In this document: piece by piece, positions 1,714 through 62,357 of the stretch
How the letters are laid out: each line of letters starts with the position of its first letter
Numbering within the stretch: the stretch's first letter is position 1
Assembly (NCBI GenBank): GCA_001782045.1
Contig: MFNK01000008.1
Coordinates: 2,597 to 66,596, forward strand
Source of the DNA: Candidatus Levybacteria bacterium RIFCSPHIGHO2_01_FULL_36_15b
GTDB taxonomy: Bacteria; Patescibacteriota; Microgenomatia; Levybacterales; UBA12049
DNA: 64,000 nucleotides
Reading direction: 5' to 3'
The notes under the pieces: model-generated
Seen by the model: only the letters and a program-made list of their open reading frames with translations
Told to the model about the DNA's origin: nothing
The model's database searches: none
Program-made: the position numbers and the translations under genes

Positions 1714-1742
1714 TTGATTTTTGTCTTATAGTGTGTTATATT
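1714..1742 (+). promoter_or_regulatory. sigma70-like promoter TTGATT-17-TATATT upstream of the first family gene
   Basis: TTGATT at 1714-1719, 17 nt spacer, TATATT at 1737-1742. Sits in the argS-downstream gap, so the in-frame ATG at 1749 is the more likely start. Confidence 0.4.
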
Positions 1743-1748
1743 CCACGC

Positions 1749-2300
1749 ATGGAAAAAGAACCAAGATTTTTTATCAATATTCCTGAAAGTGAAAGGGAAT
1801 ATACAATGCCAAAAATTAAAGAATACCCAAGAGACGGAGAAGAAACAGTAGTTTTTGAGGGGATTGGTGGACCTGTATTTGAAAAGAATCAAACGGAGAG
1901 AAAAGTGATTCGAAAACCAAAAGATTTTGTCACAAATACACCTAAAAATTCACCAAGAACAATTCTGGCTGAAATACTAAAAAAAAGAGGTATTGACGTT
2001 CGGATTTCAAACGAGACAACAGATATTTATGGGAGTCCTCTACCTGATTTTGTAGCAATTTTTGCAGAAGATGACGCGAGGCAAATATTCAACGAAATTT
2101 TTGATTCTGCCCAGTTTCGAGAGGATAGAGTGTATATTGACTTTGAGGATACAGACGATGAGCTTAGGCAGAAAATTATTCATGGAATTGAGGCAATTGT
2201 TGATAAAAAGCTTGGCCCGGTTGTTCAAGAGCCTCAAAAACCCTATATAACCGCGCGTGAAGTCGCGGATTTAGATCCGTATAGAGTAAGGAGTAAATAG
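1749..2300 (+). CDS. VADLDPY-motif family protein (member 1; motif at extreme C-terminus ...AREVADLDPYRVRSK*)
   Basis: ORF track 1731..2300; start at 1749 preferred (MEKEPRFF...) because 1731 lies inside the putative promoter. N-terminal module (DFVTNTPKNSPRTILAEILKKRGI) is paralogous to members 2 and 3. Confidence 0.6.
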   Translation: MEKEPRFFINIPESEREYTMPKIKEYPRDGEETVVFEGIGGPVFEKNQTERKVIRKPKDFVTNTPKNSPRTILAEILKKRGIDVRISNETTDIYGSPLPDFVAIFAEDDARQIFNEIFDSAQFREDRVYIDFEDTDDELRQKIIHGIEAIVDKKLGPVVQEPQKPYITAREVADLDPYRVRSK

Positions 2301-2301
2301 T

Positions 2302-2964
2302 ATGTCAATAGAAAAAATACAAGTTCAAATAAAGAGCTCAGAAATGAACGGGGAGCAGCGGTTAAAAACCCAAGGCACACCGGAAGATTTTATAACAAAT
2401 TGCCCCGAAAATTCGGTAAGAGTTATACTGGCACAGATTTTAATAGATAAAGGCTTAGAAGAACTAAGAATTGATCAGCCTTTAGGATCTGCTGGGAAGG
2501 GTGCAAAAGGAATATTCGGAACCAAAAGGGCCCGCGAAATTATGGAAAGGATAGTCCATACTCCGGAGTTTCATGTAATTTTTATAGCTCATGATATTTC
2601 GGATATTCCCTTAGCACCCAAAGACTTTGCAAATTTAAAACTAGAAAAATTTAAAAGTACAAAGCTTATAGAAGAATTTCAGATTCTTCAATTGAAGAAA
2701 CATGTTGAAAAACTTGAAGATCTCTTTCCCTATTCTTCCGACAATGCACAAATGAACAGATTTACTAGAGAAGAAGAGAAAAAATTGAATGAATTTATTG
2801 CTTCTGGGGTTCATATTCTCACCGATGAGGAAATAAAGGCAATAATAGAAGTTATTGTTGATGCAAATGCGAGACCGGAAGATCTAATAGACGAAAGGAT
2901 AAGGCACAGAACTCTTTCGGCAAACGAAGTTGCGGACTTAGATCCGTATGGAGTAAGAAAATGA
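2302..2964 (+). CDS. VADLDPY-motif family protein (member 2; C-terminal ...SANEVADLDPYGVRK*)
   Basis: 220 aa. Module GTPEDFITNCPENSVRVILAQILIDKGLEELRIDQPLGSAGKGAKGIFGTKRAREIMERI is nearly identical to member 3. Stop overlaps the next start (ATGA). Confidence 0.65.
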   Translation: MSIEKIQVQIKSSEMNGEQRLKTQGTPEDFITNCPENSVRVILAQILIDKGLEELRIDQPLGSAGKGAKGIFGTKRAREIMERIVHTPEFHVIFIAHDISDIPLAPKDFANLKLEKFKSTKLIEEFQILQLKKHVEKLEDLFPYSSDNAQMNRFTREEEKKLNEFIASGVHILTDEEIKAIIEVIVDANARPEDLIDERIRHRTLSANEVADLDPYGVRK

Positions 2965-3629
2965 GCAACAAAGAACAAGAGCTAAAAGAATTTAATTATG
3001 GCACGCCGGAAGATTTTCTTACAAATACTGGCGAAAACTCTACAGAAGTTATGTTGGCTGAAGTTTTGATAGACAAGGGCTTAAAAGGACTAAGAATTGA
3101 TCAGCCTTTAGGATCTGCTGGGAAGGGTGCAAAAGGAATATTCGGAACCAAAAGGGCCCGCGAAATTATGGAAAGGATCGATGATACTCCGGAGTTTGAT
3201 GTAATTTTTAAAGCTTGTGATGTGCCGGATATAAGATTAAATGCTTCAGATTTTGCGGATCTGACTTTGCAAGAATTCAAAGGTACAAAACTTCAAGAGG
3301 AACTCATTACTCTTCAACTGAAGAAAGAGATAGAAAATCTTAAAAGAATTTTCCTTGATTTTTCAGGTTATCCAGATATGAAAAAAAGCGTTGAAAAAAA
3401 GGAGCAGAATTTAACATTCTTTATAGATTCAGGAGTACATATTCCCACAGATGAAGAAATAAAAAAACTAATAGAAGCTATAGTAGACGCAAATACGACG
3501 CCTGAAGATTTTAAGGAAGAATCTCAAAAGGCAAAAGAAACTCTTAAACCTGTGGATTTAAAAGTTCAAAATAGGACCCTAAGAGCAAACGAAGTAGCGG
3601 ATTTAGATCCGTATGGGGTTAGAAAATGA
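2961..3629 (+). CDS. VADLDPY-motif family protein (member 3; C-terminal ...RANEVADLDPYGVRK*)
   Basis: 222 aa tandem paralog of member 2. ATGA overlap at both ends. Confidence 0.65.
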   Translation: MSNKEQELKEFNYGTPEDFLTNTGENSTEVMLAEVLIDKGLKGLRIDQPLGSAGKGAKGIFGTKRAREIMERIDDTPEFDVIFKACDVPDIRLNASDFADLTLQEFKGTKLQEELITLQLKKEIENLKRIFLDFSGYPDMKKSVEKKEQNLTFFIDSGVHIPTDEEIKKLIEAIVDANTTPEDFKEESQKAKETLKPVDLKVQNRTLRANEVADLDPYGVRK

Positions 3630-4378
3630 CAGAAAGAATAATAAACTACCAAAAAGAACAAAAGACGGAAGTTGTAATGGAGGGGATTATGGGTCCAGTT
3701 TCTATTCCTGTGGAAAAAACTCAAACTCCAGAAATTCCATCTCAAACTGCATCAAAAGATACATTAAGAGCTCACGAAGTAGCAGAGTTAGACCCGTATG
3801 GTGTGCGTTCAAAACCTTCTAAGCCGATTAAAGTTGAGCACTCTCCAATTCCAGAATTAGAAGTAATTGACGGAAGACACTTACATGGAAGCTCTAGGCT
3901 TATAGTTGCAGAAGTTTTAAAAGAAAAGGGCTACGGAGGCATTATAATAACGCAAGTCCCAGGAGAAGAATTTAAACAAATTAGAATAAAAAAAGAAAGA
4001 GCGCAACAGAAATTTGAAGAATTATGTGAATTACCTGACTTAAAGCTTTTGGAAGAAATTACAGATCCAAAACCTTTTTCCCAACCACCTGATTTAAGCA
4101 AAAGAGGAGAGTTCTACGAATTTGACAACATAGTCAATCAAAGAAGACTCAAGGCGCTTTACTATCAAGCAAAAATAAAACACTTAAAAGAGGCTTCAAA
4201 GCATTTTAAAATACCGCTGGAAGACGGAAAAGTTGTAATATATGAAGCGTTAATTGATGAAAATTTGAGATCATATCCCGGCACTAGTTTTGAAGCCCTG
4301 GTCAATAAAAGGGAAAAAATTCCCTCTAGGGCAGAAGTAAAACATTGGGTAAAACAGATCGTAATGCAAAACTTATGA
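3626..4378 (+). CDS. VADLDPY-motif family protein (member 4; motif near N-terminus, RAHEVAELDPYGVRSKPSKP)
   Basis: 250 aa. After the motif there is a module with LIVAEVLKEKGYGG and EEFKQIR, resembling the modules of members 2, 3 and 5. Confidence 0.6.
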   Translation: MTERIINYQKEQKTEVVMEGIMGPVSIPVEKTQTPEIPSQTASKDTLRAHEVAELDPYGVRSKPSKPIKVEHSPIPELEVIDGRHLHGSSRLIVAEVLKEKGYGGIIITQVPGEEFKQIRIKKERAQQKFEELCELPDLKLLEEITDPKPFSQPPDLSKRGEFYEFDNIVNQRRLKALYYQAKIKHLKEASKHFKIPLEDGKVVIYEALIDENLRSYPGTSFEALVNKREKIPSRAEVKHWVKQIVMQNL

Positions 4379-5622
4379 CAGAAAGCTCATCAGGGTTTGG
4401 CAGTAATATGCCGGAAAAGTTAAGAAGTCCAGAATTTGAAGATAGATTCCTTTGGGGAGCAGAGCCAGATAATTCTGTTGATTTAACTCTTGCAAATATC
4501 TTAAAAGAGAGGGGTATTAAGGGCATAGCTTTTGAAAGAAAAACAAGGGAAAACGATGGAGGGGAATATACAAATATATATGTAACCACTGATAAAGCAA
4601 GAATGACCATGAATAAAATAACTGAAATGCCGGAAATTGGTGCTTTAAGTGACGCAACTTACCCAGGGTTTAGTTTAGACGAGCCTGATTTTGATAAAGT
4701 TACCATTGAAGAATTTAAGAATGTAGATTTGCAAAACAGGTTAAAAGCACTTTTTTGTAAAAATACAATTGCAGATTTTGAAACGTGGCCAGATGATGGC
4801 TTAGAGGTTTGGGAAGACAACAGCAATGCAATGAATGTCAACCACTATACAGAGGAAATGGAAGAGTATTTAAGATTTAGTACGCCGAGTACTGTTCCGG
4901 ACGACGACGAAATAAAAGCATTAATTGAACTAATTGTTGATTCACAAGGAATACCAAGAAGAGAAAAAGAAGCTACAGAAGAAGTAATAGTTGTTGATTC
5001 AAAATCCACACTTAGCGCAAACGAGGTAGCTGATTTAGATCCGTATAATGTGCGCGGTAAGCCCATTCAAAACTCTCCAAAACAGCTTTTGGAAGAAAAA
5101 GAAACTTTAGGGGAATTGGAAATTTGGGGATCACATATTCCGGAATCCTCCAATTTAATTCTTGCAGAGCTTTTGCAGGAAGCGGGGTTCCAGGATATCG
5201 GGATAAAGGATGCAAAAGACGGGAAAAAGGACATTTATTGTAGTGATAATTATACTCGAAGAATAATAAATAGCACTTTTAATTTCTCGGATTTCCAAAT
5301 ACTTTCTCAAATTACAGGTGGTTATCCCAATGAATTGCCGGATTTTAGCAAAGCAGAATTCTCGGAATTTAAAAATGAAATCACACAGAGAAGGCTAAAA
5401 GGTCTACGTTATGACATCCTAATCAAGGAATATATAAGGTCCTGTCAAAGAAAAGGCATACCTATTAACGCTAATGCACAAGGATATATGGAAGCCAGTA
5501 AATCTGACGCTTTAATATATGAAATTACTCCTTACGGGACTGCTCCGCAAACTCTTCACTTAGAGATTCCCGACAGGAAAGAATTAAAAAACTGGATAAG
5601 AGAAATAATAAGTACTTTATAA
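4375..5622 (+). CDS. VADLDPY-motif family protein (member 5; internal motif SANEVADLDPYNVRGKPIQ separating two homologous half-modules)
   Basis: ORF track 4345..5622; ATG at 4375 gives an ATGA overlap with the member 4 stop, as elsewhere in the array. Two repeated modules (LANILKERGIKG...EEFKNVDLQNRLKALF and LAELLQEAGFQD...SEFKNEITQRRLKGLRY) flank the motif. Confidence 0.6.
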   Translation: MTESSSGFGSNMPEKLRSPEFEDRFLWGAEPDNSVDLTLANILKERGIKGIAFERKTRENDGGEYTNIYVTTDKARMTMNKITEMPEIGALSDATYPGFSLDEPDFDKVTIEEFKNVDLQNRLKALFCKNTIADFETWPDDGLEVWEDNSNAMNVNHYTEEMEEYLRFSTPSTVPDDDEIKALIELIVDSQGIPRREKEATEEVIVVDSKSTLSANEVADLDPYNVRGKPIQNSPKQLLEEKETLGELEIWGSHIPESSNLILAELLQEAGFQDIGIKDAKDGKKDIYCSDNYTRRIINSTFNFSDFQILSQITGGYPNELPDFSKAEFSEFKNEITQRRLKGLRYDILIKEYIRSCQRKGIPINANAQGYMEASKSDALIYEITPYGTAPQTLHLEIPDRKELKNWIREIISTL

Positions 5623-5631
5623 ACATTAATT

Positions 5632-6504
5632 ATGAAAGAATTAAATTTCCATTTAAGAGCAGACGAAGTAGCTGATTTGGATCCTTATAACGTTCGTGGA
5701 AAACCTGTTCAGCAGGCGGCAGAAGATCTTCTGGGGGATGAGCCTGAAAATGGCCTAGAAGGAGCTTTCAATTATGTCCAGGAAACGACCCTGGTAGTAA
5801 ATGAAAAATTGGCTTGGGAAAGAGTTTTTGGTTTAAGGCCGGAAATTGGGCCATTGCCACCTTATTTTACCCACGAAATGAAAGAAAAACTTGAAGAAAA
5901 CGGTTTTAATTTTATTTATATTCCTCATTTAGAGCTCGAGAACGGATGGCGTGGGCTAAGTACAGCGGGATATTTAAGTGCCTTACAAAGAGATTATCCA
6001 AACTGGAAAGCTCTTGAGTATCTTCCAGATATAGATAGAGATAATCCTAACGTACCAAAAAACTTAAGTCAGACCTTTTGGGACGACGTAGAAAGAGGGA
6101 ATATACCCTTTCCGCAACTTCCCGGTAAATGGATTGCTGTGGAGCATAGAGATGGAAGTTTTATGGAAGATCATCTAGGAATAAATTTTTATAATAGTGA
6201 TGATTGGAGCGAAATTTTATCAGGAATTACTATGAAACAGCAAAAAGCACTTGAAGAATTAGACCTTTGGGGATTCAGGGCGCATATTAGACTTCCTGAA
6301 GCAATTGAATGGAATCTTCTAGCTAATAGATTCGGGTGGGGAAGCCCCGGCGAATGGGACTGGACAAGCACCGAAACCAATGAAAATGAAATTGTAGTTA
6401 TGGGACTTTTTGACGATAAAATTAATAGCGAATTTAAGCTTGTTTCAAAACAAAGGAAAGATTTTCTGGCGCAACCAATAATTGATTTTAGTCTGGAAAC
6501 TTAA
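5632..6504 (+). CDS. VADLDPY-motif family protein (member 6; N-terminal LRADEVADLDPYNVRGKPVQQAAEDLLGDEPENG)
   Basis: 290 aa. The N-terminal motif and acidic linker match the N-termini of members 10-13. Confidence 0.6.
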   Translation: MKELNFHLRADEVADLDPYNVRGKPVQQAAEDLLGDEPENGLEGAFNYVQETTLVVNEKLAWERVFGLRPEIGPLPPYFTHEMKEKLEENGFNFIYIPHLELENGWRGLSTAGYLSALQRDYPNWKALEYLPDIDRDNPNVPKNLSQTFWDDVERGNIPFPQLPGKWIAVEHRDGSFMEDHLGINFYNSDDWSEILSGITMKQQKALEELDLWGFRAHIRLPEAIEWNLLANRFGWGSPGEWDWTSTETNENEIVVMGLFDDKINSEFKLVSKQRKDFLAQPIIDFSLET

Positions 6505-6563
6505 TAGCCTCGATTTTTGACATATTTTAAACTGATACTCTTTCCGTTATAATATTAGCTCTT

Positions 6564-7862
6564 ATGAACTACACAAGAAAAGTATTAGACAATGGTGTCC
6601 GAGTTATAACAGTTCCTATGCCTTCGTTTGAATCTGCAACAGTAATGGTAATGGTTGGAGCAGGAAGCAGATACGAAACAACAAAAAACAACGGAATTTC
6701 CCACTTTTTGGAACACATGGCTTTTAAGGGTACGACAAAAAGACCAAGTGCCATGGATATTGCAAGCATGATAGATGGCATTGGAGGCGAATTTAATGCA
6801 TTTACAAGCAAAGAAGTAACAGGATATTTTGTAAAAGCTGCTAAAACACACGCAGAACTTTGCATGGATGTTTTATCCGACATGCTTCAAAATTCCAAGC
6901 TGGATGCAGCAGAAATAGAGAAAGAAAGAGGAGTAATTTTGGAGGAAATAAACCTTTACGAAGATACACCAAGCAGAAAAATAGGCGATATTTACGAAAG
7001 TCTCTTATATGGAGATACTCCGATGGGCTGGGATATCGCCGGCCAAAAAGAAGTTATAAAAAGTATTACAAGGCAGGATTTTGTTGATTATATGGCAAGC
7101 CTTTACAGCGCCAAAAATATGGTCGTTGTAGTTGCGGGCGGAATAATTCCGGACAAAATTGAGGCTATGGCCGTTAAGTATTTTGGCAAAATGTCACAAT
7201 TTGATACAGTAAAATATAGCCCAATAGTAGAAAACCAGGTCAAACCATCTCTTTATATAAAACATAAAGTTACGGAACAAGTTCATATAGCGGTTGGGTT
7301 CCGCACGGTTGCGCTCGAGCATCCGGATAGATACGCTTTATCGGTTTTAGGCTCAATTTTGGGTGGAGGAATGAGCTCGCGGCTTTTTAGCGAAGTTAGG
7401 GAAAAACGAGGGCTTGCTTATTACGTAAGAACCGGTTCGGAAAATTATCAAGATGCAGGAAATTTAGTATCAACCGCAGGACTTGATCCAAAAAGAGTGG
7501 ATGAGGGAATAAAAGTTGTAGTTGAAGAGTATTCTAAATTTGCAAGCGGAAAGGCAAATGTTACTAAAACAGAACTTGCAAAAGCCAAAGAGTACATAAA
7601 AGGGCATTTGGTTTTAGAAGAAGAAGACAGCCGCTTTATGGCTGCTTTTTACGCTCAAAACGAGCTTTTGGAAAAGAATATGGAAACGCCCGAAGAACTT
7701 ATTGAAAATATAGAAAAAGTAACAATGGAAGATGTAGAAAAAGTCGCCAAAAAATACTTTAAAAACGAAACATTAAATTTAGCAATAATCGGAAATTTTG
7801 ATCCTTCGACAGGCTCAGGACGAGCATCCGAGGCAAAATTTAAGAAGCTTCTGAAGATTTAG
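6564..7862 (+). CDS. M16 family zinc metallopeptidase (insulinase/pitrilysin-like)
   Basis: 432 aa. Inverted zinc-binding motif HFLEHMAFKGT (HxxEH). Peptidase_M16 N- and C-domain layout. Confidence 0.8.
   Translation: MNYTRKVLDNGVRVITVPMPSFESATVMVMVGAGSRYETTKNNGISHFLEHMAFKGTTKRPSAMDIASMIDGIGGEFNAFTSKEVTGYFVKAAKTHAELCMDVLSDMLQNSKLDAAEIEKERGVILEEINLYEDTPSRKIGDIYESLLYGDTPMGWDIAGQKEVIKSITRQDFVDYMASLYSAKNMVVVVAGGIIPDKIEAMAVKYFGKMSQFDTVKYSPIVENQVKPSLYIKHKVTEQVHIAVGFRTVALEHPDRYALSVLGSILGGGMSSRLFSEVREKRGLAYYVRTGSENYQDAGNLVSTAGLDPKRVDEGIKVVVEEYSKFASGKANVTKTELAKAKEYIKGHLVLEEEDSRFMAAFYAQNELLEKNMETPEELIENIEKVTMEDVEKVAKKYFKNETLNLAIIGNFDPSTGSGRASEAKFKKLLKI
7802..7820 (+). repeat. dispersed ~20 bp repeat, copy 1 (TCCTTCGACAGGCTCAGGA)
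   Basis: Read directly from the sequence. Overlaps the 3' end of the M16 peptidase ORF. Other copies at 23193, 24394, 24524 and 33674 (reverse). Confidence 0.6.
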
Positions 7863-8778
7863 CCTGTTTCCTCAAGCTTTCTCTTTCCTGTGCCAGTTTT
7901 ATATTTCTTACAGATTCTTCTCCGAGTTCTAATTTAGCCGGATATCTCAGCATAAAATAAGCACCCCACTTGTGAATGTCTACTTCTCTTTGTGCATTAT
8001 GAATCCAAAGTCCATTAGAGTCTTCTACAAAAGTTCCAACATCCTTAAGGCTGATTTTTTCTTCCCAAACTACTTTTTGTGGGTCTTTAATGTCAAAAAT
8101 AGTTAACTTATCGCCATTATTGAGCATGTGGAATCCTTCATAATCCCATTTTTCAACTAAAAGAGTGTCAGATTGTCTTTGCTCAATAACTCCGTCTTGC
8201 CACTCTACGGTTGCTCTTGTTATTTCTCCAGGCCTTATTCCATAAGGTCTTTCTGCAATAGGCGTTCCTCCTGCAGAATACCTTTTTCCTTTAGTATCTA
8301 CGGCAGTAGATTTATCCACCATAATCCAGTTTCCTTCGCCTAACTTCTCGTTAAACCTATCGGCTGAATATTTCATCTTGAATTCATACTTTTCCATCAA
8401 CCTTTTATCTGCTTCTTTGTCTCCTTCTTCTTCACCTACGTATAAAGAAGAAATATAATAATCTTCTTCTTTTTCCATTGGATCAGGAAGAAGATCCCAT
8501 TTTTCTCCGTGTAGTACTTCTGCATCGTCTTTAGTTTTTCCTTTTCTATCCGGATTATTTAAATCCCAAACTTCAGTGTTTCCAAAGACGCCGTCTGCTC
8601 TATCATAAGTTATAAAATCTCTGTCTTGGAATGCCCAGTATCCACCCTCGATGCCAGTTTCTGAGTAAAATTCTAACTTTCCTTTGTAGGTATGTGGGGG
8701 AAGTTTTTCTTTTGGCTCTCTTGTTTTATACGGATCTAAATCTGCAACTTCGTTTGCTCTTAACAATTCATTTTTCAT
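7840..8778 (-). CDS. VADLDPY-motif family protein (member 7; N-terminal LRANEVADLDPYKTREPKEK)
   Basis: 312 aa on the minus strand, convergent with the M16 peptidase gene and overlapping its end by about 22 nt. Confidence 0.55.
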   Translation of the reverse strand: MKNELLRANEVADLDPYKTREPKEKLPPHTYKGKLEFYSETGIEGGYWAFQDRDFITYDRADGVFGNTEVWDLNNPDRKGKTKDDAEVLHGEKWDLLPDPMEKEEDYYISSLYVGEEEGDKEADKRLMEKYEFKMKYSADRFNEKLGEGNWIMVDKSTAVDTKGKRYSAGGTPIAERPYGIRPGEITRATVEWQDGVIEQRQSDTLLVEKWDYEGFHMLNNGDKLTIFDIKDPQKVVWEEKISLKDVGTFVEDSNGLWIHNAQREVDIHKWGAYFMLRYPAKLELGEESVRNIKLAQERESLRKQAKSSEAS

Positions 8779-8857
8779 TAGGACCGAATTATAAGTCTAA
8801 GCATTAATTTAGTCAAACGAGCTAGTCGTTATAACATTGTTATAACATAAGTTTCTA

Positions 8858-8886
8858 TTTACATTTTAGGTTTTACGCTTTACAAT
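8858..8886 (+). promoter_or_regulatory. sigma70-like promoter TTTACA-17-TACAAT upstream of ndk
   Basis: TTTACA at 8858-8863, 17 nt spacer, TACAAT at 8881-8886, ending 8 nt before the ndk ATG. Confidence 0.4.
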
Positions 8887-8893
8887 TAGACCG

Positions 8894-9445
8894 ATGGAAA
8901 AAACATTAGTACTTTTAAAGCCTGATGCGGTAAAGCGGGGAATAATGGGTGAAATAATTCATAGATTCGAGCGTATGGGGCTTCGAATTGTTGGTATGAA
9001 AATGGTAAAGGCAGACAAGTCTTTATTAGACAAGCATTATGCCACAGATAAAACATCTACTTTAGACCGAATTGGAGGCAAAACAATAGATACTTACAAA
9101 AAATATGGCAAGGATTTAAAAAAAGAGTTTGGAACAGAAGACGCAGCAAAAGTTGGTAAGGTTGTGGTTGGCTGGTTATTAGACTTTATGACCTCCACAC
9201 CCGTTGTTGCTATGGTGGTAGAGGGCAAACACGCAGTAGATAATGTAGTAGCGTTAGCAGGTTCTACAATGCCTGTCGCTGCTGCACCTGGAACAATTAG
9301 AGGGGATTTTTCAACAGATAGCGCTGCTTATGCAAACGAAGAAAAAAGAGCAGTAACTAACTTAGTTCATATTTCCGCTACAAAAGAAGAAGCAGAATTT
9401 GAAATTTCTCTTTGGTTTACGCCTTCCGAAATCCACAACTATTAA
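8894..9445 (+). CDS. ndk: nucleoside diphosphate kinase (atypical, with insertion)
   Basis: N-terminal TLVLLKPDAVKRG, C-terminal ...HISATKEEAEFEISLWF matching the NDK fold. 183 aa, about 35 aa longer than typical NDK. Confidence 0.75.
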   Translation: MEKTLVLLKPDAVKRGIMGEIIHRFERMGLRIVGMKMVKADKSLLDKHYATDKTSTLDRIGGKTIDTYKKYGKDLKKEFGTEDAAKVGKVVVGWLLDFMTSTPVVAMVVEGKHAVDNVVALAGSTMPVAAAPGTIRGDFSTDSAAYANEEKRAVTNLVHISATKEEAEFEISLWFTPSEIHNY

Positions 9446-9870
9446 GTTTTTCTTGATCTATATTCTAAAAATGCTAAGATTGCAATTCCCGTTGATGTTG
9501 TTGCGGAAAGAAGGCAATATTGGCAGAATGCTTTTAAATCAAACGCTTGAACTCCAATTAAAACCACAGAAACAACTAAACCAATTCCTGCTAATAAGTA
9601 GAAAGCTTGCAGGAATTTTTCTTTATAATTTGTCAGTATCAAAAGGCATATAATTATAACGCTTAAGTAAAAAAGTGAACCTAAAAGTGCCAAAGGAACG
9701 CCATAAATAACTGAATATTTACTGGTTAAAACAACCTCACACCCTGCAATAGTGCAAGGCGGAGCTACGTTTTTAAAGTGGAGAATAGTTAAGTAGGTTG
9801 TGTCCAAGAAGCCTAAAAATGCAACAATTGCCGCGTAAACAATAAACTTATTTTTTAAATGCATCGTCAA
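9442..9870 (-). CDS. vitamin K epoxide reductase (VKOR)-like membrane protein
   Basis: Multi-TM 142 aa. Loop Cys pair PPCTIAGCEV and TM CxxC (FCQYCL). Genetically paired with the downstream DsbA-like gene. Confidence 0.55.
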   Translation of the reverse strand: MTMHLKNKFIVYAAIVAFLGFLDTTYLTILHFKNVAPPCTIAGCEVVLTSKYSVIYGVPLALLGSLFYLSVIIICLLILTNYKEKFLQAFYLLAGIGLVVSVVLIGVQAFDLKAFCQYCLLSATTSTGIAILAFLEYRSRKT

Positions 9871-10582
9871 TTAGTTTTTTAAAATCTTCGTAACTATTGG
9901 GATTTATTCTTGCTCCGTTTAAATAGAAGCTAGGAGTGGAGTTTAGGCCGGCGGAAATCGATTCTTTTTCTGAATCTGCAACAAAAGCTTTGGCCTGCGT
10001 AGAATTCAAATCATTCGTAAACTTAGCAGTATCCAAGCCCAACATTTGAGCGTAATTTACAAAGATTGTCTGTGGAGTTGTGCTTTCCGACCAATCATTT
10101 TGGTTTTCGTATAAAGCATTGTGCATTTCAAAAAATTTGCCTTGAACATTCGCCGCATAAGCTGCTTTTGCGCTAATTTCTGCGTTTTTATGAATATTAC
10201 TTAATGGAAAAAAGCGGTAAACAAAATGCAAATTTTTATAATCTGCCAAAATTTTATTTACAATCGGATGATAGCTTGCGCAAGCTGGGCATTGATAATC
10301 TCCGTATTCAATTAATGTAACCTTAGAATCTTTTGGTCCCTTTTCAAAATCATACTTTGTAGCAAGAGGAACTGTCTGATCTGTGTTTACCGTAGAAGAA
10401 GGGGATTTGTTTACAAATAAAGCTAATCCTAAAATTGCAATTCCAACTAAAGCTGCAACTCCACCCCAAAGGCCAAATGTCTTTAATTGCTCGTTTCTTT
10501 TTGCTTTTTCAGCTTCTTGTGTCCACTGCGTTTTCTGGAGCGCTTTTTTCTGAGCTTTTGTGAGTTTTTCGTTTCCGTTCAC
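9848..10582 (-). CDS. DsbA-like thioredoxin-fold thiol:disulfide oxidoreductase (membrane-anchored)
   Basis: N-terminal TM. CPAC active-site motif (YGDYQCPACASYHP). Confidence 0.7.
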   Translation of the reverse strand: MNGNEKLTKAQKKALQKTQWTQEAEKAKRNEQLKTFGLWGGVAALVGIAILGLALFVNKSPSSTVNTDQTVPLATKYDFEKGPKDSKVTLIEYGDYQCPACASYHPIVNKILADYKNLHFVYRFFPLSNIHKNAEISAKAAYAANVQGKFFEMHNALYENQNDWSESTTPQTIFVNYAQMLGLDTAKFTNDLNSTQAKAFVADSEKESISAGLNSTPSFYLNGARINPNSYEDFKKLIDDAFKK

Positions 10583-10677
10583 CTGCTAATAATCGCACTT
10601 CGGTAAGTTTTTTTCAAGAGGGATTATTGACAAGAGTGTCAATGAAAATAGCAAATAAATAGTTTTATCATGCTTTT

Positions 10678-11202
10678 ATGACAATTGAAAACGACTTAAG
10701 AAGAGAATCTCAAGCTGCTTCTAAAACGTTCAAAAGAGCTAATCAAGTCAGAATTCTGGTTCACCAAGAAGCGGTAAAGGCCTGGGAAGATCTTGAGAAC
10801 ACACGGATAAAAGCCTTAGAAGGAATTCTCAAAGAAAAAGATTTAGGAGTTTGCTCGGAAAAGCACTATCCATTTGTCGGGGAGTCTGCTAGTAGAAACG
10901 ATAATACAGAGTTAGGTATTTTTCCAACCTCGCAACTTAAGTATTATTTTGTGGAATTTGTATCACAAGACCCGTGGTTTTATATGTCTATAAATAATTT
11001 CAGGCGAGCCCAGGTTAGGCAATTGTGCCAAGGACATAGCCAAGATGTAAGTTATACTTATACAGAATTAATCGAGGAGAAGGGTAAATTCTTACTGCCA
11101 GAAACCCACAGAGATGTTACAGAGCTTAAGGTTAATAACTATCCAGAAGCCGTTTTTGCTCATTTAGGCATTGCATCATTACCAGCTCGGCCTCGGTTTT
11201 AA
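10678..11202 (+). CDS. hypothetical protein
   Basis: 174 aa ORF with no recognisable motif. Confidence 0.35.
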   Translation: MTIENDLRRESQAASKTFKRANQVRILVHQEAVKAWEDLENTRIKALEGILKEKDLGVCSEKHYPFVGESASRNDNTELGIFPTSQLKYYFVEFVSQDPWFYMSINNFRRAQVRQLCQGHSQDVSYTYTELIEEKGKFLLPETHRDVTELKVNNYPEAVFAHLGIASLPARPRF

Positions 11203-12661: not shown

Positions 12662-13402
12662 GTGAAAAGAGGAGAAGTTATTAAATTTATAATTCTGCGA
12701 ACTGTTGGGAATTTCTTGGTTCTTTTTGCAATTTATGGAATTATTGCGACTTTTGGTCCGGCACTCTATTACGAGCTAAACTATCGAATTCTAACAGCGC
12801 GTGGAGTAAAGTATATTGTTCAAAATCCACAAACTCAAAATATTCAGCCGACTCCAATGCCTAATCAGCCTCAAATTACACCCATTCCAACTTCGCCCAC
12901 ATCCAGGGGAGTTGCAAGCTTTACAGACGTTTTACTGGGCGCAAAAGAACAAGTTTTGGTGGCTCCGGATCCAGAGTTTAGTATTGTTATTCCAAAAATT
13001 GGAGCTTCTGCAAAAGTTTTTGCAAATGTGGATAGTTCGGATGAAAAAAGTTACCAGCAGATTTTGCAGCAGGGAGTTGCTCACGCAAGAGGAACAGTTT
13101 TCCCAGGTCTTTTAGGCAACATTTATCTTTTTGCCCACTCAACGGATAATTTTTGGAACGTTGGAAGATATAATGCAGTATTCTATTTGCTAAAAGACTT
13201 GCAGCCGGGGGACGAAATTACTGTTTTTTATCAAAATATTAGGCACGATTATATTGTTACAGGTTCTCAAATAGTTAACCCAAATGATGTTTCTCATATA
13301 GTTAATGCACAAAAAGAGAATAGTGAAACATTAATTCTTCAAACTTGCTGGCCGCCCGGAACCATTTTTCAACGGTTGCTTGTCTTTGCAAAACCAAAAT
13401 GA
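12662..13402 (+). CDS. sortase family transpeptidase
   Basis: N-terminal TM. Catalytic His (YLFAHST) and TLxTC motif (ETLILQTCWPPGT). Confidence 0.7.
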   Translation: MKRGEVIKFIILRTVGNFLVLFAIYGIIATFGPALYYELNYRILTARGVKYIVQNPQTQNIQPTPMPNQPQITPIPTSPTSRGVASFTDVLLGAKEQVLVAPDPEFSIVIPKIGASAKVFANVDSSDEKSYQQILQQGVAHARGTVFPGLLGNIYLFAHSTDNFWNVGRYNAVFYLLKDLQPGDEITVFYQNIRHDYIVTGSQIVNPNDVSHIVNAQKENSETLILQTCWPPGTIFQRLLVFAKPK

Positions 13403-14777: not shown

Positions 14778-15980
14778 TTATTTAAGGCTGATTGTATAAA
14801 GGTTTGGGGTAATCGCCAAATTGCCTAAGTTAGTTAAAATAACTAATTTTGAAGCTCCTGGCCACGAAAACACGAAGCTATCTACAAAAGGTCCTGCATA
14901 AACAGTTGTCTGATTTTGAGCATCGTATTCCATAATATCTATTTTGCCGTTATGCACATACACCAAGTGCTTTGAATCCGGATACCAGTTTATAGGTAAA
15001 GGGGAATCTTCGGCCATTTTAGGCAAATTGTCCAAGATTTTGTAGTTTTTATCTTCTTTTGTGTCGTAGACATATACCGAATCTTTTTCTATATCCCGTG
15101 ATTCCTGTGTTGAATTTGTGCCTATCAATGGAGGGTTTATTAATGGCTCAATAGTCCCCGAAACGGATGCAGAATAGAGTATTTTAGTATCATCCGCTGA
15201 CCAGTCTAAAACATTAAAATATTGCGAAACTACCGCTCTTACGTTCTTTTTAAGTCCTGCTATTCTTGCCATTTCCTTTTCTAATTTTAAATCTTCCCAA
15301 GTTGCATTAACCGTATCAAGCGTTAAGGTTACATTATCAGGACTTGTGTTTAAGGAATCTGCAGCAAGCAGATAATGCGATGCTAGTGGCGTAGTAAAAC
15401 TTGCCAGAAGCTCCTTGCTATCAGGTGACCATGTAATTGTACTTTGTGAGAAGTTAAGGCCAGCATCGTTTGCAACCTGTGTAGAGGCATTTTGAAGAGT
15501 TAAAACCGGCCTTAATGTCATATCAAGTATATATATTCCATTTTTTAGTGCTGATTGCGATGATACGTTATAAGCAAGAAGAGTCTTAGTTGGATCTAGT
15601 ACCGGGTTTGAAACACCTATATTGGTAATGTTTTCAAGCTTAGGAGCGGCCGGAATAAGCAGGGCATCGGCTTTGCTTACTACCTCTTTTTTTACCGTAA
15701 TTTTTTTGTTCCACGCAAAGTAGCCGTCTTTATAAATTCGCACTTCATATTCTCCCGGGGATAAATTTATGGTATTGTCGGTTGCTGTAGTAAGCTCTCC
15801 GTTTACAAAAACTTGTGCGCCATTTGGGGTACTGGTTGCAACGAGTAAGCCGGTTCCGGCCACTTTAGGGGTTCCGCCTGAAAATCCAAATCTGTAGCCT
15901 TTTCCATAGAGAATAACAGTTGCTGTAATGGCAAGTAGTATGGCAGTGACTGCAAAAGATATAGCAAGCTGTTTTCGCAT
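14778..15980 (-). CDS. PEGA domain-containing membrane-anchored protein with C-terminal beta-propeller-like region
   Basis: N-terminal TM. PEGA-like segment (PGEYEVRIYKDGYFAWNKKITV). Rest is rich in beta-strand-type residues. Confidence 0.5.
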   Translation of the reverse strand: MRKQLAISFAVTAILLAITATVILYGKGYRFGFSGGTPKVAGTGLLVATSTPNGAQVFVNGELTTATDNTINLSPGEYEVRIYKDGYFAWNKKITVKKEVVSKADALLIPAAPKLENITNIGVSNPVLDPTKTLLAYNVSSQSALKNGIYILDMTLRPVLTLQNASTQVANDAGLNFSQSTITWSPDSKELLASFTTPLASHYLLAADSLNTSPDNVTLTLDTVNATWEDLKLEKEMARIAGLKKNVRAVVSQYFNVLDWSADDTKILYSASVSGTIEPLINPPLIGTNSTQESRDIEKDSVYVYDTKEDKNYKILDNLPKMAEDSPLPINWYPDSKHLVYVHNGKIDIMEYDAQNQTTVYAGPFVDSFVFSWPGASKLVILTNLGNLAITPNLYTISLK

Positions 15981-19843: not shown

Positions 19844-20506
19844 ATGATTGAACAAAGTAGGCTGGGATTAAGAGCTCATGAGGTAGCAGACCTAGATCCA
19901 TACAAAGTTCGCAAAATAGAGCTGCAGCTAGAGGCAGAAGAGCTTATTGTAAAAGAAGAACCGCGAGAAGAAGTTGGGAAAATGTACTTCACGAAAGAGC
20001 AGAAACAGCAGTTAGAGCAACAAGGATTTCAAATCTACAGACTTTCCGGAATTACTTCCAACGAAATGAAAGGAATAAGTTTTAAATATAATTTTTTAAG
20101 AAGTGGTTTGCGTAAGTTGATGAATGAAAAATCCATGGAAGGAGAAGTTGCTATTGATCCAAATAATTTTTTTTGGCAAGAGACGGCTTATAAAAAATAT
20201 TTAGAGCAGGCAGAAATTGTTCTTTCCAATAAAAATAAGAGAGGAGTAGAAGGTACAAGATTTATTTGGGGCAACGTTGCTGACTATGTGGAATTGAGCT
20301 ATCTATACTTTCGAAGAAACACAAAACCTTTTGGATCTTTATTTAAATCCGACTGGGCAAGAACTTCTGGACCAGGTCCAAATCTTTCAGTTGCCATAGT
20401 TACAATTAAAGACAACTTTGTTCAATTTAAATTTGAAGACACAGATAAAATGTCGGAAAATATTAAAATTGCACCACTTCTTATAAAAGACGTTCAAATT
20501 GATTAA
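19844..20506 (+). CDS. VADLDPY-motif family protein (member 8; N-terminal LRAHEVADLDPYKVRK)
   Basis: 220 aa. Shares the FTKEQKQQLEQQGFQIYRLSG module with members 9-11. Confidence 0.55.
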   Translation: MIEQSRLGLRAHEVADLDPYKVRKIELQLEAEELIVKEEPREEVGKMYFTKEQKQQLEQQGFQIYRLSGITSNEMKGISFKYNFLRSGLRKLMNEKSMEGEVAIDPNNFFWQETAYKKYLEQAEIVLSNKNKRGVEGTRFIWGNVADYVELSYLYFRRNTKPFGSLFKSDWARTSGPGPNLSVAIVTIKDNFVQFKFEDTDKMSENIKIAPLLIKDVQID

Positions 20507-20511
20507 TAGAT

Positions 20512-21417
20512 TTGATTTTGTATATTACGAGTCTATATAATTTAACTGTGGCTGAAGCGAAAAAAGACGAATTTTTATCAAGAGAAGATATTCCAGATCC
20601 ACCTTCTTCGATAAGTAAGAGCAGAAGGCTCGAAATCCAAAAGGAGTTAGAAGAACTTGAAAAAGAAGGATTTCCCAAACAATCTAGTAAGTCTACAACT
20701 GTAGAAAAAGTACCAGAAAAAAGACCAGGAAAAGATTTTCAAAGGCCAGATGAGTGGGTAGATCAAGATCCTTACAATGTTCGTGGGAAACCTAAGCAAG
20801 AAGCAGCAAGAGAGCTTTTGAGTTCTGATGAAGAAAAACAAACTAAATTATTAGAGCAAGAGGGTTTTGGATCTTTTACACAAGAACAAAAAGTAGAACT
20901 CGAAAGTAGGGGTTTTGAAATTTATAAATTGACAGGAATTTCAATGGCAGATATGCAGGATAAAATAGAATTTGCAACTAATGTAGGCCCTGATTTTGTA
21001 AAAAATTTGAAATCCAGCGTCGGTGAAGTAGCAGTTGTGCATACTCCAGGTTTATTCTTTCTATCAAACAGTAGTCAAAAGACTCTCGCCGAGCAGCAGG
21101 AAATAATTGATTTGTTTTCCGCAAGATTAAGTAGCGATATTCCCGGAGTTAAAGCAATAATTGGAGAAGCAGCTGATTATATTGCGATTGCGGATCAAGA
21201 CAGTAGAATTCAAGATGAGCGTAGTAGGCTTTTCGGGCTTCGTTACGCTGGCAGTATTCGTACCTCAACTACACGTGGTAGATATCGTTCTGAAAAATTA
21301 TCCCTTGCTCGAGGAATGAAAAAAGAACTCCATGTTATGTTTTGGGGTGACGATTTAAACCAATTTAAAGATCTATTTGTTGCTCCCTTGATTATTCCTA
21401 ATAATGACAGAACCTAA
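20512..21417 (+). CDS. VADLDPY-motif family protein (member 9; divergent motif WVDQDPYNVRGKPKQEAARELL at about residue 80)
   Basis: 301 aa. FTQEQKVELESRGFEIYKLTG module. Confidence 0.5.
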   Translation: MILYITSLYNLTVAEAKKDEFLSREDIPDPPSSISKSRRLEIQKELEELEKEGFPKQSSKSTTVEKVPEKRPGKDFQRPDEWVDQDPYNVRGKPKQEAARELLSSDEEKQTKLLEQEGFGSFTQEQKVELESRGFEIYKLTGISMADMQDKIEFATNVGPDFVKNLKSSVGEVAVVHTPGLFFLSNSSQKTLAEQQEIIDLFSARLSSDIPGVKAIIGEAADYIAIADQDSRIQDERSRLFGLRYAGSIRTSTTRGRYRSEKLSLARGMKKELHVMFWGDDLNQFKDLFVAPLIIPNNDRT

Positions 21418-22135
21418 AAAAGACGAAATGATGAGATCAGATCAGGTCGCGGATTTAGATCCGTATAACCAGCGTGGAAAACCAAAGCAAGAAGCCGCAA
21501 GGGAGCTTTTGGGGGATGAGCCGGAAGTTGAGGAAGATGAGAATTTTGATGGACCAAAGTTTACACAAGAGCAAAAAGTAAAACTGCGCGATTACGGTGC
21601 GGAAATATTTACACTTCACGGAGAGTCTATAAATTCATTAAAAGAAAAAGGATTAAAAGTATGGTCGAATTTAGACTCTTCCGATTTCCAGCTTGGCTAT
21701 GAAGGACATAAAACTGAAGTGGCAATTAGACTAGCTTCAAATTATCTTTTCCTACCAGATAGTAACAATAAAAATTATGATGAACAAGCAAATATGGTAA
21801 CAAACTATTCATTGGAGCTTGAAAGAAAAATTCCAGGCATTTATGCATCGCTCGGATTTCCAAGTGACTATGCAGAAATAGTACTGCATTGCTTAACCAA
21901 GCGTGGACTAGAATTGTTCAAAGGTACAACTCCTAATGGAGGGTATATGTACACCAGTACAGCAATGAGTAGATCGGAAAGCTTAGGATCGGGAAAAACA
22001 GATTCATTTTTTATATCAGTAGGCGGAATGGATGAATATGGACTTGGCATACATGCTTTTTCTGCAACAGAAGATATTAGTTTTATATTTGCAACCCCCT
22101 TGATTTTCCCTGATTCAAATCGAGTTAATTTATGA
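21404..22135 (+). CDS. VADLDPY-motif family protein (member 10; N-terminal MTEPKKDEMMRSDQVADLDPYNQRGKPKQEAARELLGDEPE)
   Basis: 243 aa. 14 nt overlap with member 9. The N-terminal 45 aa are near-identical to members 11-13. Confidence 0.6.
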   Translation: MTEPKKDEMMRSDQVADLDPYNQRGKPKQEAARELLGDEPEVEEDENFDGPKFTQEQKVKLRDYGAEIFTLHGESINSLKEKGLKVWSNLDSSDFQLGYEGHKTEVAIRLASNYLFLPDSNNKNYDEQANMVTNYSLELERKIPGIYASLGFPSDYAEIVLHCLTKRGLELFKGTTPNGGYMYTSTAMSRSESLGSGKTDSFFISVGGMDEYGLGIHAFSATEDISFIFATPLIFPDSNRVNL

Positions 22136-22836
22136 TTGAACCTAAGAAAGACGACATGATGAGATCAGATCAGGTTGCGGACTTAGATCCGTATAACATG
22201 CGTGGTAAACCAAAGCATGAAGCTGCGAGGGAATTGATTGGGGAAGAGCCTGAAGTTGAGGAAGAACAATTTGATGGTCTAAAGTTTACCCAAGAACAAC
22301 GAGAAAAATTGGAAGAAGTGGGACTCACGATTCTTCAATTAGAAAATTTAACTTTTGACGATCTATATAATAATGGTTTAGGCAAAATTTATGAAACCAA
22401 ATATTTTGATTTAATAGAGAAGATGAATAATGATAGGTCCATTAAAACAGAAGTGGCAATAAACATTTTGGACCCTTTTATTAAAGATAGTTTTTTTAAA
22501 ACATTTGGTGAGCAGATTGAGCTTGTGCGACTCTTTGATGAGCAAATTAGAAATCAGATTCCAGGAGTTAAAGCTAATATTGCCGAAGCAGTAGACTTAG
22601 CCCAAATATCTTTTATTCACGCAAAAGAATCATATTTTTATGTATATAATAATTATACTAGAACCAGCACTTCGATAGATGGAAAATTAGTAGCAATAAG
22701 TGATCAGTATAACTCAGGCACCTCTAGCACCTTTATTAAAACTCGTTTTGATTTTGTTGATAGGGATAGTAAATTACCATCTTTAGGAATAGTCGCATTA
22801 ATATACCCTGAAAGTTATCCGGGCAAGTCAGATTAA
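22132..22836 (+). CDS. VADLDPY-motif family protein (member 11; N-terminal MIEPKKDDMMRSDQVADLDPYNMRGKPKHEAARELIGEEPE)
   Basis: 234 aa. ATGA overlap with member 10. Recent paralog, with DNA-level similarity across the first ~120 nt. Confidence 0.6.
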   Translation: MIEPKKDDMMRSDQVADLDPYNMRGKPKHEAARELIGEEPEVEEEQFDGLKFTQEQREKLEEVGLTILQLENLTFDDLYNNGLGKIYETKYFDLIEKMNNDRSIKTEVAINILDPFIKDSFFKTFGEQIELVRLFDEQIRNQIPGVKANIAEAVDLAQISFIHAKESYFYVYNNYTRTSTSIDGKLVAISDQYNSGTSSTFIKTRFDFVDRDSKLPSLGIVALIYPESYPGKSD

Positions 22837-25603: not shown

Positions 25604-26284
25604 ATGGAAGAGGAATTAGTAAAATCTCCGGAAATAAATGAAAGCGAATTTGACGTTGTTGTGGTTTTGGGTGGCAATATTCGAAAAGATAACAATGGAA
25701 ATTGGAGAACATCTAGCTTTGAAGAAGGGGAAGAAAAATCAATGGGAGCGCATGGTAGAATCCTAGCCGCATCCGAACTTTATAAACAAGGCAAAGCAAA
25801 AAACTTTATTGTTTGTACTGGGCTTAGTTCTAATATATCCGGTCAGCCAGGAGTTTTGGAGCCGCAAGCACCAACCGAGGCAGAAGTAATGGCTTGGGAG
25901 CTAGAAGAATATGGAGTTCCTAAAAATTTAATAATTCGCGAAGATATTTCTGACAGCACTTTAGCAAACGTTAGAGAGGCTGCAAGAATTATAAGAGAAC
26001 ACAATTTTAAAAATGTTGGTCTTCTTACAAGTTTTTGGCATTTAGAAAGGGCAATGGTAATGATGGAATCCCAAAGGCTGGACACAGAAGGAAGACACGT
26101 TACTCCTTTATCATCGGAGGATATTCTTGCGGAAAAATCCTCTCACCACGCTTATTTAATTAATAAAGTAAAGGAAGCGCCAACAATGCAAAAAAGAATT
26201 GAAGCAGAAAATAGAGGATTACAAGCATTCAAAAGCGGAGACTATAACCAAACTCCTCATGGAACAAACCCGACGAAAGATTAG
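25604..26284 (+). CDS. DUF218 (YdcF/SanA/ElyC-like) domain protein
   Basis: VVVLGG, RILAASELYKQG and EDISDSTLANVREAARII segments match the DUF218 pattern. Confidence 0.5.
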   Translation: MEEELVKSPEINESEFDVVVVLGGNIRKDNNGNWRTSSFEEGEEKSMGAHGRILAASELYKQGKAKNFIVCTGLSSNISGQPGVLEPQAPTEAEVMAWELEEYGVPKNLIIREDISDSTLANVREAARIIREHNFKNVGLLTSFWHLERAMVMMESQRLDTEGRHVTPLSSEDILAEKSSHHAYLINKVKEAPTMQKRIEAENRGLQAFKSGDYNQTPHGTNPTKD

Positions 26285-26850
26285 GTAATGTTAAAAGCTT
26301 TTAAGATTTCTTCAGCCTTAACTCTATATTCATCTTCATCTGATATTATTTTCTCTCTAATTTCAAATAAGGGAACATTATTTTCTTCACATAGTATTTC
26401 TACTCCTGTTGCGAAGGGGCTATTATATGTTGAAAAGTTCATTCCGGTCATTGCTTCAGAATATGTGTGCATTTCCGGTAAAAGCACTACTCCGGTAGGT
26501 AAGCTTCTATCTTCTTTTTTTGATGTTGTATAATTTTCTACGTTGTAAAAATTGCTCAAATAAGAGTCTGCTTCATTTTGAACTGCAACTTGCTGTTGCT
26601 TAGCTCCAAGATCCGAAAGTAAATCAAATATCCATTTTCTTAATACAACTGATCTACTGGAAACAGAACCTAAAACAAGAATTCTGAATGGCTCTTTTTC
26701 TCTATTTATCTCTCTTGAATCTTTTTCCTCTGGTGTTTCTGGAAGCAATTCTCTTGCAGCTTCTTGTTTTGGTTTTCCACGCTGATTATACGGATCTAAG
26801 TCGGCAACATCGGGGGCTCGCATTATATCGTCTGTTTTAGGTTCACTCAT
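26281..26850 (-). CDS. VADLDPY-motif family protein (member 12; N-terminal MSEPKTDDIMRAPDVADLDPYNQRGKPKQEAARELL)
   Basis: 189 aa tandem paralog of member 13. Located between rplA and rplJ. Confidence 0.6.
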   Translation of the reverse strand: MSEPKTDDIMRAPDVADLDPYNQRGKPKQEAARELLPETPEEKDSREINREKEPFRILVLGSVSSRSVVLRKWIFDLLSDLGAKQQQVAVQNEADSYLSNFYNVENYTTSKKEDRSLPTGVVLLPEMHTYSEAMTGMNFSTYNSPFATGVEILCEENNVPLFEIREKIISDEDEYRVKAEEILKAFNIT

Positions 26851-54529: not shown

Positions 54530-54531
54530 TA

Positions 54532-56100: not shown

Positions 56101-56149
56101 TGGTAAGGCGCATTATATCAAATCTCAATTAGATTGATATAATAGTGTA

Positions 56150-56677: not shown

Positions 56678-56679
56678 TA

Positions 56680-57378: not shown

Positions 57379-57394
57379 TCTATTGCTCTAGGCA

Positions 57395-58687: not shown

Positions 58688-58734
58688 AATTGCTAAAGGA
58701 AAATATAGAAAATTTAAAAAATATCGTATAATCT

Positions 58735-59358: not shown

Positions 59359-59370
59359 TCTACGCCTAAT

Positions 59371-59895: not shown

Positions 59896-59946
59896 ATAAG
59901 ATATTTTAGAAAGCAAAAAACCTCAAAAATATGATATAATTCATGC

Positions 59947-61661: not shown

Positions 61662-61701
61662 GGTAAAAATAGTATTAATATCCCTTTTGTCGTTTTAAAC
61701 T

Positions 61702-62313: not shown

Positions 62314-62357
62314 GTATTAAATTGACCAATTTAGCTTATATATATTAAGCTTTAAAT

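Follow-up and report, generated by a model that had tools for sequence, protein, structure and literature searches.

The window analysed here, a 64,000-nt stretch of contig MFNK01000008.1 from Candidatus Levybacteria bacterium RIFCSPHIGHO2_01_FULL_36_15b (GC content ~36%), contains a tandem array of six genes on the plus strand, G1 to G6 (1749-6504), which directly follows the arginyl-tRNA synthetase (ArgRS) gene (58-1686). Each array gene encodes one copy of a 17-residue motif with the consensus L-R-A-x-E-V-A-D-L-D-P-Y-x-V-R-x-K (written out as a peptide, LRANEVADLDPYGVRK), referred to here as the tag. The array is an operon of tandemly duplicated, fast-diverging paralogs, and the tag is portable across unrelated protein families. 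Both the motif and the two domain families of the array are undescribed and are confined to a very narrow lineage. Because the tag is invariant, lies in segments predicted to be disordered, is independent of position and occurs on unrelated, fast-evolving folds, it may be a portable short linear peptide for docking or targeting, by which a variety of client proteins are brought to a single conserved partner, a reading to which we give an even chance.

Sequence, position and structural setting of the tag

The tag is C-terminal in the first three genes of the array: copy 1 (2247-2291, plus strand; ITAREVADLDPYRVR) closes G1 (1749-2300, 183 aa), and the copies at 2914-2958 and 3579-3623 close G2 (2302-2964, 220 aa) and G3 (2961-3629, 222 aa), respectively. 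In G4 (3626-4378, 250 aa) it occupies residues 46-61 (3764-3808; LRAHEVAELDPYGVR), in G5 (4375-5622, 415 aa, identical to the deposited hypothetical protein A3B38_02355) it lies at residues 213-227 (5011-5055), between two domain halves, and in G6 (5632-6504, 290 aa) it is N-terminal, at residues 8-22 (5653-5697). An earlier note on this DNA, made from the sequence alone, had placed the motif at the C-terminus, about 50 aa in, mid-protein and at the N-terminus across the six genes, and these coordinates are borne out. It had also given members 1 to 3 the same ending; all three do end in the motif, but the tail of G1 (...AREVADLDPYRVRSK, followed by the stop codon) is not identical to that shared by G2 and G3 (...ANEVADLDPYGVRK, likewise at the stop).

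A profile search of the six-frame translation found 13 copies of the motif in the window and no further degenerate ones, and the back-translated pattern V-A-[DE]-L-D-P-Y matched 12 times, against 0.00 matches expected (100 shuffles). About one window gene in six bears the tag, on at least four families that have no other similarity to one another, and five further tagged genes are found in the same metagenome-assembled genome (MAG) outside the window. Selection acts on the peptide and not on a DNA or RNA element, since synonymous positions vary freely at the invariant residues. Across 23 motif copies, taken from the window and from a syntenic relative (L001, described below), the codons of the invariant V, A, P and R have an entropy of 0 at positions 1-2 and of 1.3-2.0 bits at position 3. 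The D-P-Y and the downstream R of the motif are invariant.

Structure prediction with AlphaFold2 places the two domains of G5 at residues 23-190 and 248-415, with a predicted local distance difference test (pLDDT) score of mostly 80-93 and the same order of secondary-structure elements, joined by a low-confidence linker (197-246) in which the motif is modeled as a short helix (215-219, pLDDT ~50). This prediction used an alignment of 9 rows, and the alignments were shallow in general (7-9 sequences). In G6, residues 1-41 have a pLDDT <50 and form a putatively disordered N-terminal tail with the motif, after which comes a confidently predicted domain. The motif is thus predicted to sit outside the folded domains, in a flexible N-terminal tail, a C-terminal tail or an inter-domain linker, which agrees with the previous suggestion that it is a linker or docking segment and not part of a fold.

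Modules, gene junctions and history of the array

G1 to G5 hold six copies of one ~170-aa alpha/beta-plus-helical domain, shortened in G1, and G6 has a different folded domain of ~200 aa from another family. The two halves of G5 (domain A, 4441-4944; domain B, 5116-5619) are homologous and colinear, with 27% identity over 171 aa (E 3e-12). In all-against-all BLASTP, G2 and G3 share 60% identity with each other and 30-35% with the N-terminal half of G5, G4 shares 33% with the C-terminal half of G5, and G1 shares ~35% with the first ~70 residues of the G2/G3 domain; the multiple alignment agrees with these relations. Modules on either side of the motif are therefore homologous between genes, as the earlier note had proposed, but its count of about eight modules becomes seven folded ones (six of one domain plus the unrelated G6 domain) and two tail relics. 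These relics, at 1836-1883 in G1 and 3662-3709 in G4, are N-terminal extensions (G1, ETVVFEGIGGPV; G4, EVVMEGIMGPV; EVVMEGIMGPVSIP) whose sequences align with the helix that closes the domain (EIKALIELIVDSQGIP). They appear to be remnants of a truncated upstream domain and are read as direct evidence for fission. G3 is a recent duplicate of G2, and a DNA tract of 233 nt (2374-2606 against 3000-3232) with 85% identity, clearly more than elsewhere in these genes, whose proteins are 60% identical overall, points to recent duplication or gene conversion between these paralogs.

Neither the array domain nor the other tag proteins have a meaningful match in Pfam, NCBIfam, PADLOC or PHROGs, and no relative of the array domains was found among PDB folds or viral folds. 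G6 gave a weak, unconfirmed indication of an FGE-sulfatase-like fold. The G6 domain does have homologues that lack the tag (P0043, P0044 and P0045), in other metagenomic lineages, and because such motif-less homologues exist the tag can be considered an add-on. Signatures shared by these proteins are W..VLG, YP.W, FW..V..G.I.FP.L.G.W.AVE, RLPEA.E.NLL.NR and GFR.

Among 5.8 billion clustered proteins, G5 has one homologue, P0002, at 46% identity. The contig of P0002, L001, is syntenic with the window, with an ArgRS gene (85% identity) upstream of an array of 11 genes, R1 to R11. Of these, R1-R3 carry the motif at the C-terminus, R4-R6 internally and R7-R11 at the N-terminus; P0002 is R5. Array orthologues are more diverged than ArgRS, at 39-40% for G2/G3 and R1, 47% for G4 and R4, 46% for G5 and R5, and 59% for G6 and R10, the exception being G1 and R3 with 82%. 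Despite this divergence of the domains, the V-A-[DE]-L-D-P-Y..R core is invariant between the two genomes. Copy number (6 versus 11 genes) and gene order differ, yet the DNA just upstream of the first array gene and its four initial codons (MEKE) are conserved, even though the first genes of the two arrays are non-orthologous. Shuffling of the cassettes behind conserved promoter-proximal DNA has therefore taken place.

Directly upstream of G1 is a promoter-like site, TTGATT-17-(TG)TATATT (1714-1742, plus strand), which ends 7 nt before the G1 ATG, and no terminator-like site was found inside the array; region 1749-6504 is therefore likely to be a single operon. Its mRNA may be leaderless at the first gene, although a consensus match to a promoter is no proof of function. 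At both G1 (1714-1749) and M7 (8816-8778, minus strand), a tagged gene downstream of the array, -10-like boxes end 7-10 nt before the ATG. This arrangement suggests leaderless transcripts for first genes that carry or precede the tag.

The earlier note described ATGA overlaps at the three junctions that follow members ending in the motif. The overlaps are real, at 2961-2964 (G2/G3), 3626-3629 (G3/G4) and 4375-4378 (G4/G5), but the G1/G2 junction reads TAG-t-ATG and the gene before the third overlap, G4, has no motif at its end. The ATG codons of G2, G3 and G4 are preceded by AAGGAG, GGAG or GGGG, Shine-Dalgarno-like sequences that are encoded in the Y-G-V-R-(S)-K codons of the motif; the AAGGAG after motif copy 1 in G1 is the one for G2. 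As these codons double as the Shine-Dalgarno-like sequence of the next gene, every C-terminal copy of the motif ends directly after V-R-K. For G5 and G6 an ATG is present, with no obvious Shine-Dalgarno-like sequence.

Junction offsets differ across the junctions of both genomes (-20, -8, -4, -1, +1 and +9 nt). A polyprotein-like array, as had been suggested, would be expected to lack initiation signals and to conserve the frame relation between genes; the start codons and Shine-Dalgarno-like sequences of G2-G4 and the varying offsets speak against it. The frameshift or readthrough signals that the earlier note proposed to look for were not found either. There is no canonical slippery heptamer (X_XXY_YYZ) at the junctions, where G2/G3 and G3/G4 read AGA_AAA_TGA and G1/G2 and G4/G5 are without even this single-tRNA slip site, and 80-nt folds 3' of the junctions gave no RNA structure (z -1.06, 0.14, -0.33, -0.53 and 0.33). 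Ordinary translational coupling is the economical reading of the junctions, and the ATGA coupling is ordinary operon architecture. At 5620-5634, the frame of G6 is that of G5, with only the TAA plus 9 nt in between. Chance is the probable reason, given that the corresponding L001 junction is a 20-nt overlap in another frame.

Stop codons that result from sequencing or assembly errors were considered as an explanation for the split genes and ruled out, in line with what the earlier note had argued, as open reading frames of the same length are seen again in strain variants (P0010 for G4, P0031 for G2), in 7-10 independent contigs and in the relative at 39-82% identity. The two-domain proteins G5, R5 and R6 and the tail relics of G1 and G4 indicate that fusion and fission took place in the array, which is how the joined and split modules had been interpreted at the outset. 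Direct repeats of 38-79 nt, with 61-79% identity, coincide with the module boundaries. In the history we envisage, neighbouring genes of tag-domain layout would fuse to give G5-like two-domain proteins, and re-splitting just after the tag would give the domain-tag layout of G1-G3, in which the last codons of the tag would come to serve as the Shine-Dalgarno sequence of the following gene. The breakpoints of duplication, fusion and fission would fall in the disordered linkers that house the tag, and the tag-coding repeats (40-80 nt, 61-79% identity) would supply the homology for unequal recombination. Duplication units may begin and end at the tag because of such recombination between copies of the tag-coding DNA, which is probably a by-product and not a selected function.

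Distribution of the tag within and beyond the window

All seven window copies outside G1-G6 are N-terminal save for one degenerate internal copy. Beyond the 3' end of the array are an M16-type metallopeptidase gene (6564-7862) and, on the minus strand, M7 (7840-8778, 312 aa), an unrelated protein with an N-terminal motif (8719-8763) and a strong promoter-like site (8816-8788). A second tandem array, M8-M11, of another family (19844-22836, plus strand), has N-terminal motifs at 19868-19912, 21431-21475 and 22159-22203, and one of its junctions is an ATGA overlap (22132). The degenerate internal copy, WVDQDPY, also belongs to this array, at 20740-20784, in a member (20512-21417) with a long N-terminal extension. 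A third array on the minus strand (26281-27417) consists of M12 and M13, which are 51% identical to each other and have N-terminal motifs at 26779-26823 and 27346-27390.

The stretch separating the first two tag arrays contains a VKOR-family gene (9442-9864, minus strand), a sortase gene (12857-13402) and a PEGA-domain gene (14778-15980, minus strand), which have cell-envelope functions and no evident connection with the motif. As read from the sequence, the tag is not a sortase substrate, having neither an LPXTG nor a hydrophobic tail. Further along, 53852-63659 is a run of plus-strand genes encoding 225-433 aa without the tag, most of them unmatched in Pfam, where just one methyltransferase and a marginal TrmB were hit; it is a further lineage-specific block.

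Outside this genome the motif is rare. Only 37 hits (E <= 1e-3) came from an exhaustive search of the motif profile against 1.84 billion representative proteins, and in most of them the motif lies at residues 2-40, ahead of unrelated sequences. It starts within the first ~20 residues except in the array's domain family and in one degenerate copy; internal or C-terminal tags are found in that domain family only, plus one degenerate internal copy. In the public data the tag precedes about ten unrelated families. The named proteins with the motif come from Levybacteria MAGs and the others from a few Logan or ENA metagenome runs, so that the motif is found only in a few closely related metagenomic lineages. 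A scan of 185,579 species-representative genomes with the back-translated motif gave 24 single, scattered matches in unrelated taxa, none of them in a Levybacteria representative, a number that by our own rough estimate is close to the chance level. A word-indexed search with the motif alignment gave no match at E <= 0.01, and a literature search for the peptide string returned nothing relevant.

Four of the profile hits are phage proteins (P0035, P0028, P0029 and P0033), rich in Ala, Pro and Lys, with four tandem ETSADLDPYG(V/A) repeats. The gene of P0035 (L033, 2697-3809) follows just after holin, M15 peptidase and phage lysozyme genes, a lysis cassette. Apart from the A-D-L-D-P-Y-G core, which they have in common with the Levybacteria tag, these proteins are unrelated to it, and the match is treated as a coincidental or convergent occurrence.

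A proposed docking or targeting peptide, its candidate partner and the alternatives

If the tag is a docking or targeting peptide, it would work at either end of the chain and would bring rapidly changing client domains to one partner. Several known systems offer comparisons. Like the cargo peptides of encapsulins and microcompartments, the tag is short (~15-20 aa), partly helical, N- or C-terminal, attached through a flexible linker to unrelated cargo and common to several proteins of one organism; a short terminal peptide on diverse proteins, with a linker between that is predicted to be disordered, is what the window contains. Unlike cargo peptides the motif can also be internal. Of those window proteins that went through a Pfam scan, none matched a shell protein family, and the motif does not match the encapsulin cargo consensus, which is of the LTVGSL type. 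Hub-binding tails are a further parallel. The C-terminal peptide of FtsZ (~D-L-D-I-P-x-F-L-R) and the acidic tail of SSB are disordered tails that dock on partners, and the tag similarly has an acidic-hydrophobic core (D-L-D-P-Y..V-R) in a tail predicted to be disordered, but its spacing differs, it is mostly N-terminal and it occurs on many proteins instead of on one hub.

A possible partner is found on L002, a 275-kb contig of the same genome, where a gene for a VWA protein (683 aa; 5034-7085) and one for an AAA_5/MoxR-like ATPase (615 aa) form an operon within 4217-10957. The pair is flanked by four tag genes, two small ones upstream (one on each strand) and two of the G6 family downstream, and one of the small tag proteins (4217-4603) has what its sequence indicates to be C-terminal hydrophobic segments. 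The metal ion-dependent adhesion site (MIDAS) of the VWA protein (DQSGS...T...D) and the Walker A and B motifs of the ATPase, checked in L002, are intact. Two relatives, L029 and L030, have this arrangement of genes too, with the motif confirmed in only one protein per locus. VWA domains have been proposed to capture a client peptide that MoxR then releases (PMC7159879), and in the present case the VWA domain might bind the tag through its acidic D-L-D-P-Y stretch, leaving the ATPase to remodel or release the client. As the partner of the tag, the VWA-MoxR pair is a lead only, resting on synteny, and we consider it improbable as it stands. The same low probability is given to the wider proposal of an undescribed system for protein recruitment in this lineage. 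In it the D-L-D-P-Y tag, at either chain end or in a linker, would be read as an address by this pair or by some other conserved receptor, which would load, remodel or deliver diversifying clients with new folds, the arrays being a library of clients and the tag DNA a handle for recombination.

The lead recalls the vWA-MoxR conflict systems, in which different products of neighbouring genes around a MoxR AAA+/vWA pair have an adaptor in common (Kaur, Burroughs, Iyer and Aravind, 2020; PMC7159879). The adaptors of those systems are whole domains that pair homotypically, whereas the tag is a 17-residue peptide, and bacteria of the Candidate Phyla Radiation (CPR) are not among the multicellular taxa in which such systems concentrate. 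An adjacent gene pair of the MoxR-type AAA+/vWA kind is present in L002, L029 and L030 and absent next to the array in the window. No Pfam or PADLOC family corresponding to a third component (VMAP, iSTAND, FtsH, beta-propeller) or to enzymatic effectors was found on the flanking tag proteins; an FtsH gene ~5 kb upstream looks like a housekeeping copy.

Several points weigh against docking or targeting as the function of the tag, or against parts of the account built around it. The link to the VWA-MoxR pair as candidate partner is synteny in three related, non-independent genomes, with the pair absent around the window array and also around the small tag protein in L035. The low pLDDT of the segments that hold the motif could partly be a product of the shallow alignments (7-9 sequences), and the order of fusion followed by fission comes from two genomes only.

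Of the alternatives, a processing site is unlikely, though it fits part of the data: a protease cut or an Asp-Pro self-cleavage would free a propeptide, trim a C-terminal hexapeptide or split G5. The D-P-Y and the downstream R are invariant, the motif lies in predicted accessible, disordered segments between modules, and the M16 gene directly between G6 and M7, whose apparent HxxEH site reads HFLEH, could supply the enzyme. That gene is, however, not beside the array in L001 nor beside other motif loci, and a dedicated role for it was rejected since the adjacency is not conserved. Self-cleavage of the FrpC type requires a conserved module of ~170 aa after the Asp-Pro bond, and the sequences that follow D-P-Y are unrelated across the tagged families, with no more than 5-6 residues left after it in G1-G3. 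Moreover, 15 conserved positions and a helical N-terminal part are long for a simple cleavage site, and trimming a hexapeptide off G1-G3 has no obvious purpose. An export or surface-targeting signal, which would send fast-evolving, effector-like proteins to a non-Sec route and maybe into interaction with a host, has in our judgement a similarly small chance of being correct. A terminal tag common to diverse, diverging, lineage-specific proteins in tandem arrays resembles effector families, array copy number changes from 6 to 11 genes between relatives, and CPR bacteria are often episymbionts. Tandem duplication, copy-number change, gene-conversion tracts and a variable part joined to a conserved segment are indeed shared with polymorphic effector/immunity arrays, but the conserved segment here is a peptide and not an LXG-, WXG- or MIX-type domain. 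No trafficking, toxin, immunity or secretion-system family was matched on the array proteins in Pfam, NCBIfam, PADLOC or PHROG, nor any defence domain, and in those parts of the window that were annotated the arrays have no secretion-system genes as neighbours. Internal and C-terminal positions are also unusual for N-terminal export signals, and the putative hydrophobic C-terminus of the L002 protein at 4217-4603 suggests that the tag acts on the cytoplasmic side.

Somewhat less probable still is an assembly motif, with tags binding each other or a groove on the array domain and so joining the proteins of the operon in one complex. The tightly coupled operons, in which each gene product has one tag, would suit this, as would a predicted short helix in the N-terminal part of the motif, and the logic would be analogous to that of adaptor domains common to neighbouring genes (PMC7159879). 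AlphaFold, however, does not dock the tag on its own domains, some tag proteins are encoded alone, surrounded by housekeeping genes (L004, L036), and the tag is carried by unrelated folds. We regard recoding as very unlikely. A -1 slip at A_AAA_TGA (G2/G3 and G3/G4) or readthrough of the TAA between G5 and G6 would yield G5-like fusions, the C-terminal motifs being in reality internal linkers, and if the lysine tRNA slipped by -1 on AGA_AAA_TGA, translation would indeed continue in the frame of the gene that follows. L001 has the same AGAAAAT at R1/R2 and R3/R4, GGAG lies a few nt upstream of the slip site, and the natural fusion G5 shows that such products would be viable. Set against this are the missing heptamer and downstream structure (z -1.06 to +0.33), the -8 and -20 nt overlaps in L001, and G1/G2 and R2/R3, which need a +1 shift and have no matching slip site; the GGAG is accounted for by the start signals of G2-G4. 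Least credible of all is that the conserved 45 nt are a recombination site or an RNA motif that happens to be translated. The direct repeats at module boundaries and the different gene order in the two genomes would agree with this, but third positions are free while the amino acids are invariant, and the copies are always in the coding frame of a real open reading frame, on both strands.

For the docking or targeting reading, an invariant peptide amid fast change is the expected signature of interaction with a hub, whether in targeting, recruitment or quality control. The genomes of CPR bacteria are tiny and most of their lineage-specific genes have no assigned function; such a hub could organise a sizeable part of the organism's 'dark' proteome. 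The array further shows how gene boundaries may slide relative to module boundaries through fusion and re-splitting in disordered linkers. One peptide would be an experimental handle both to fish for the partner and to define the whole set of its clients.

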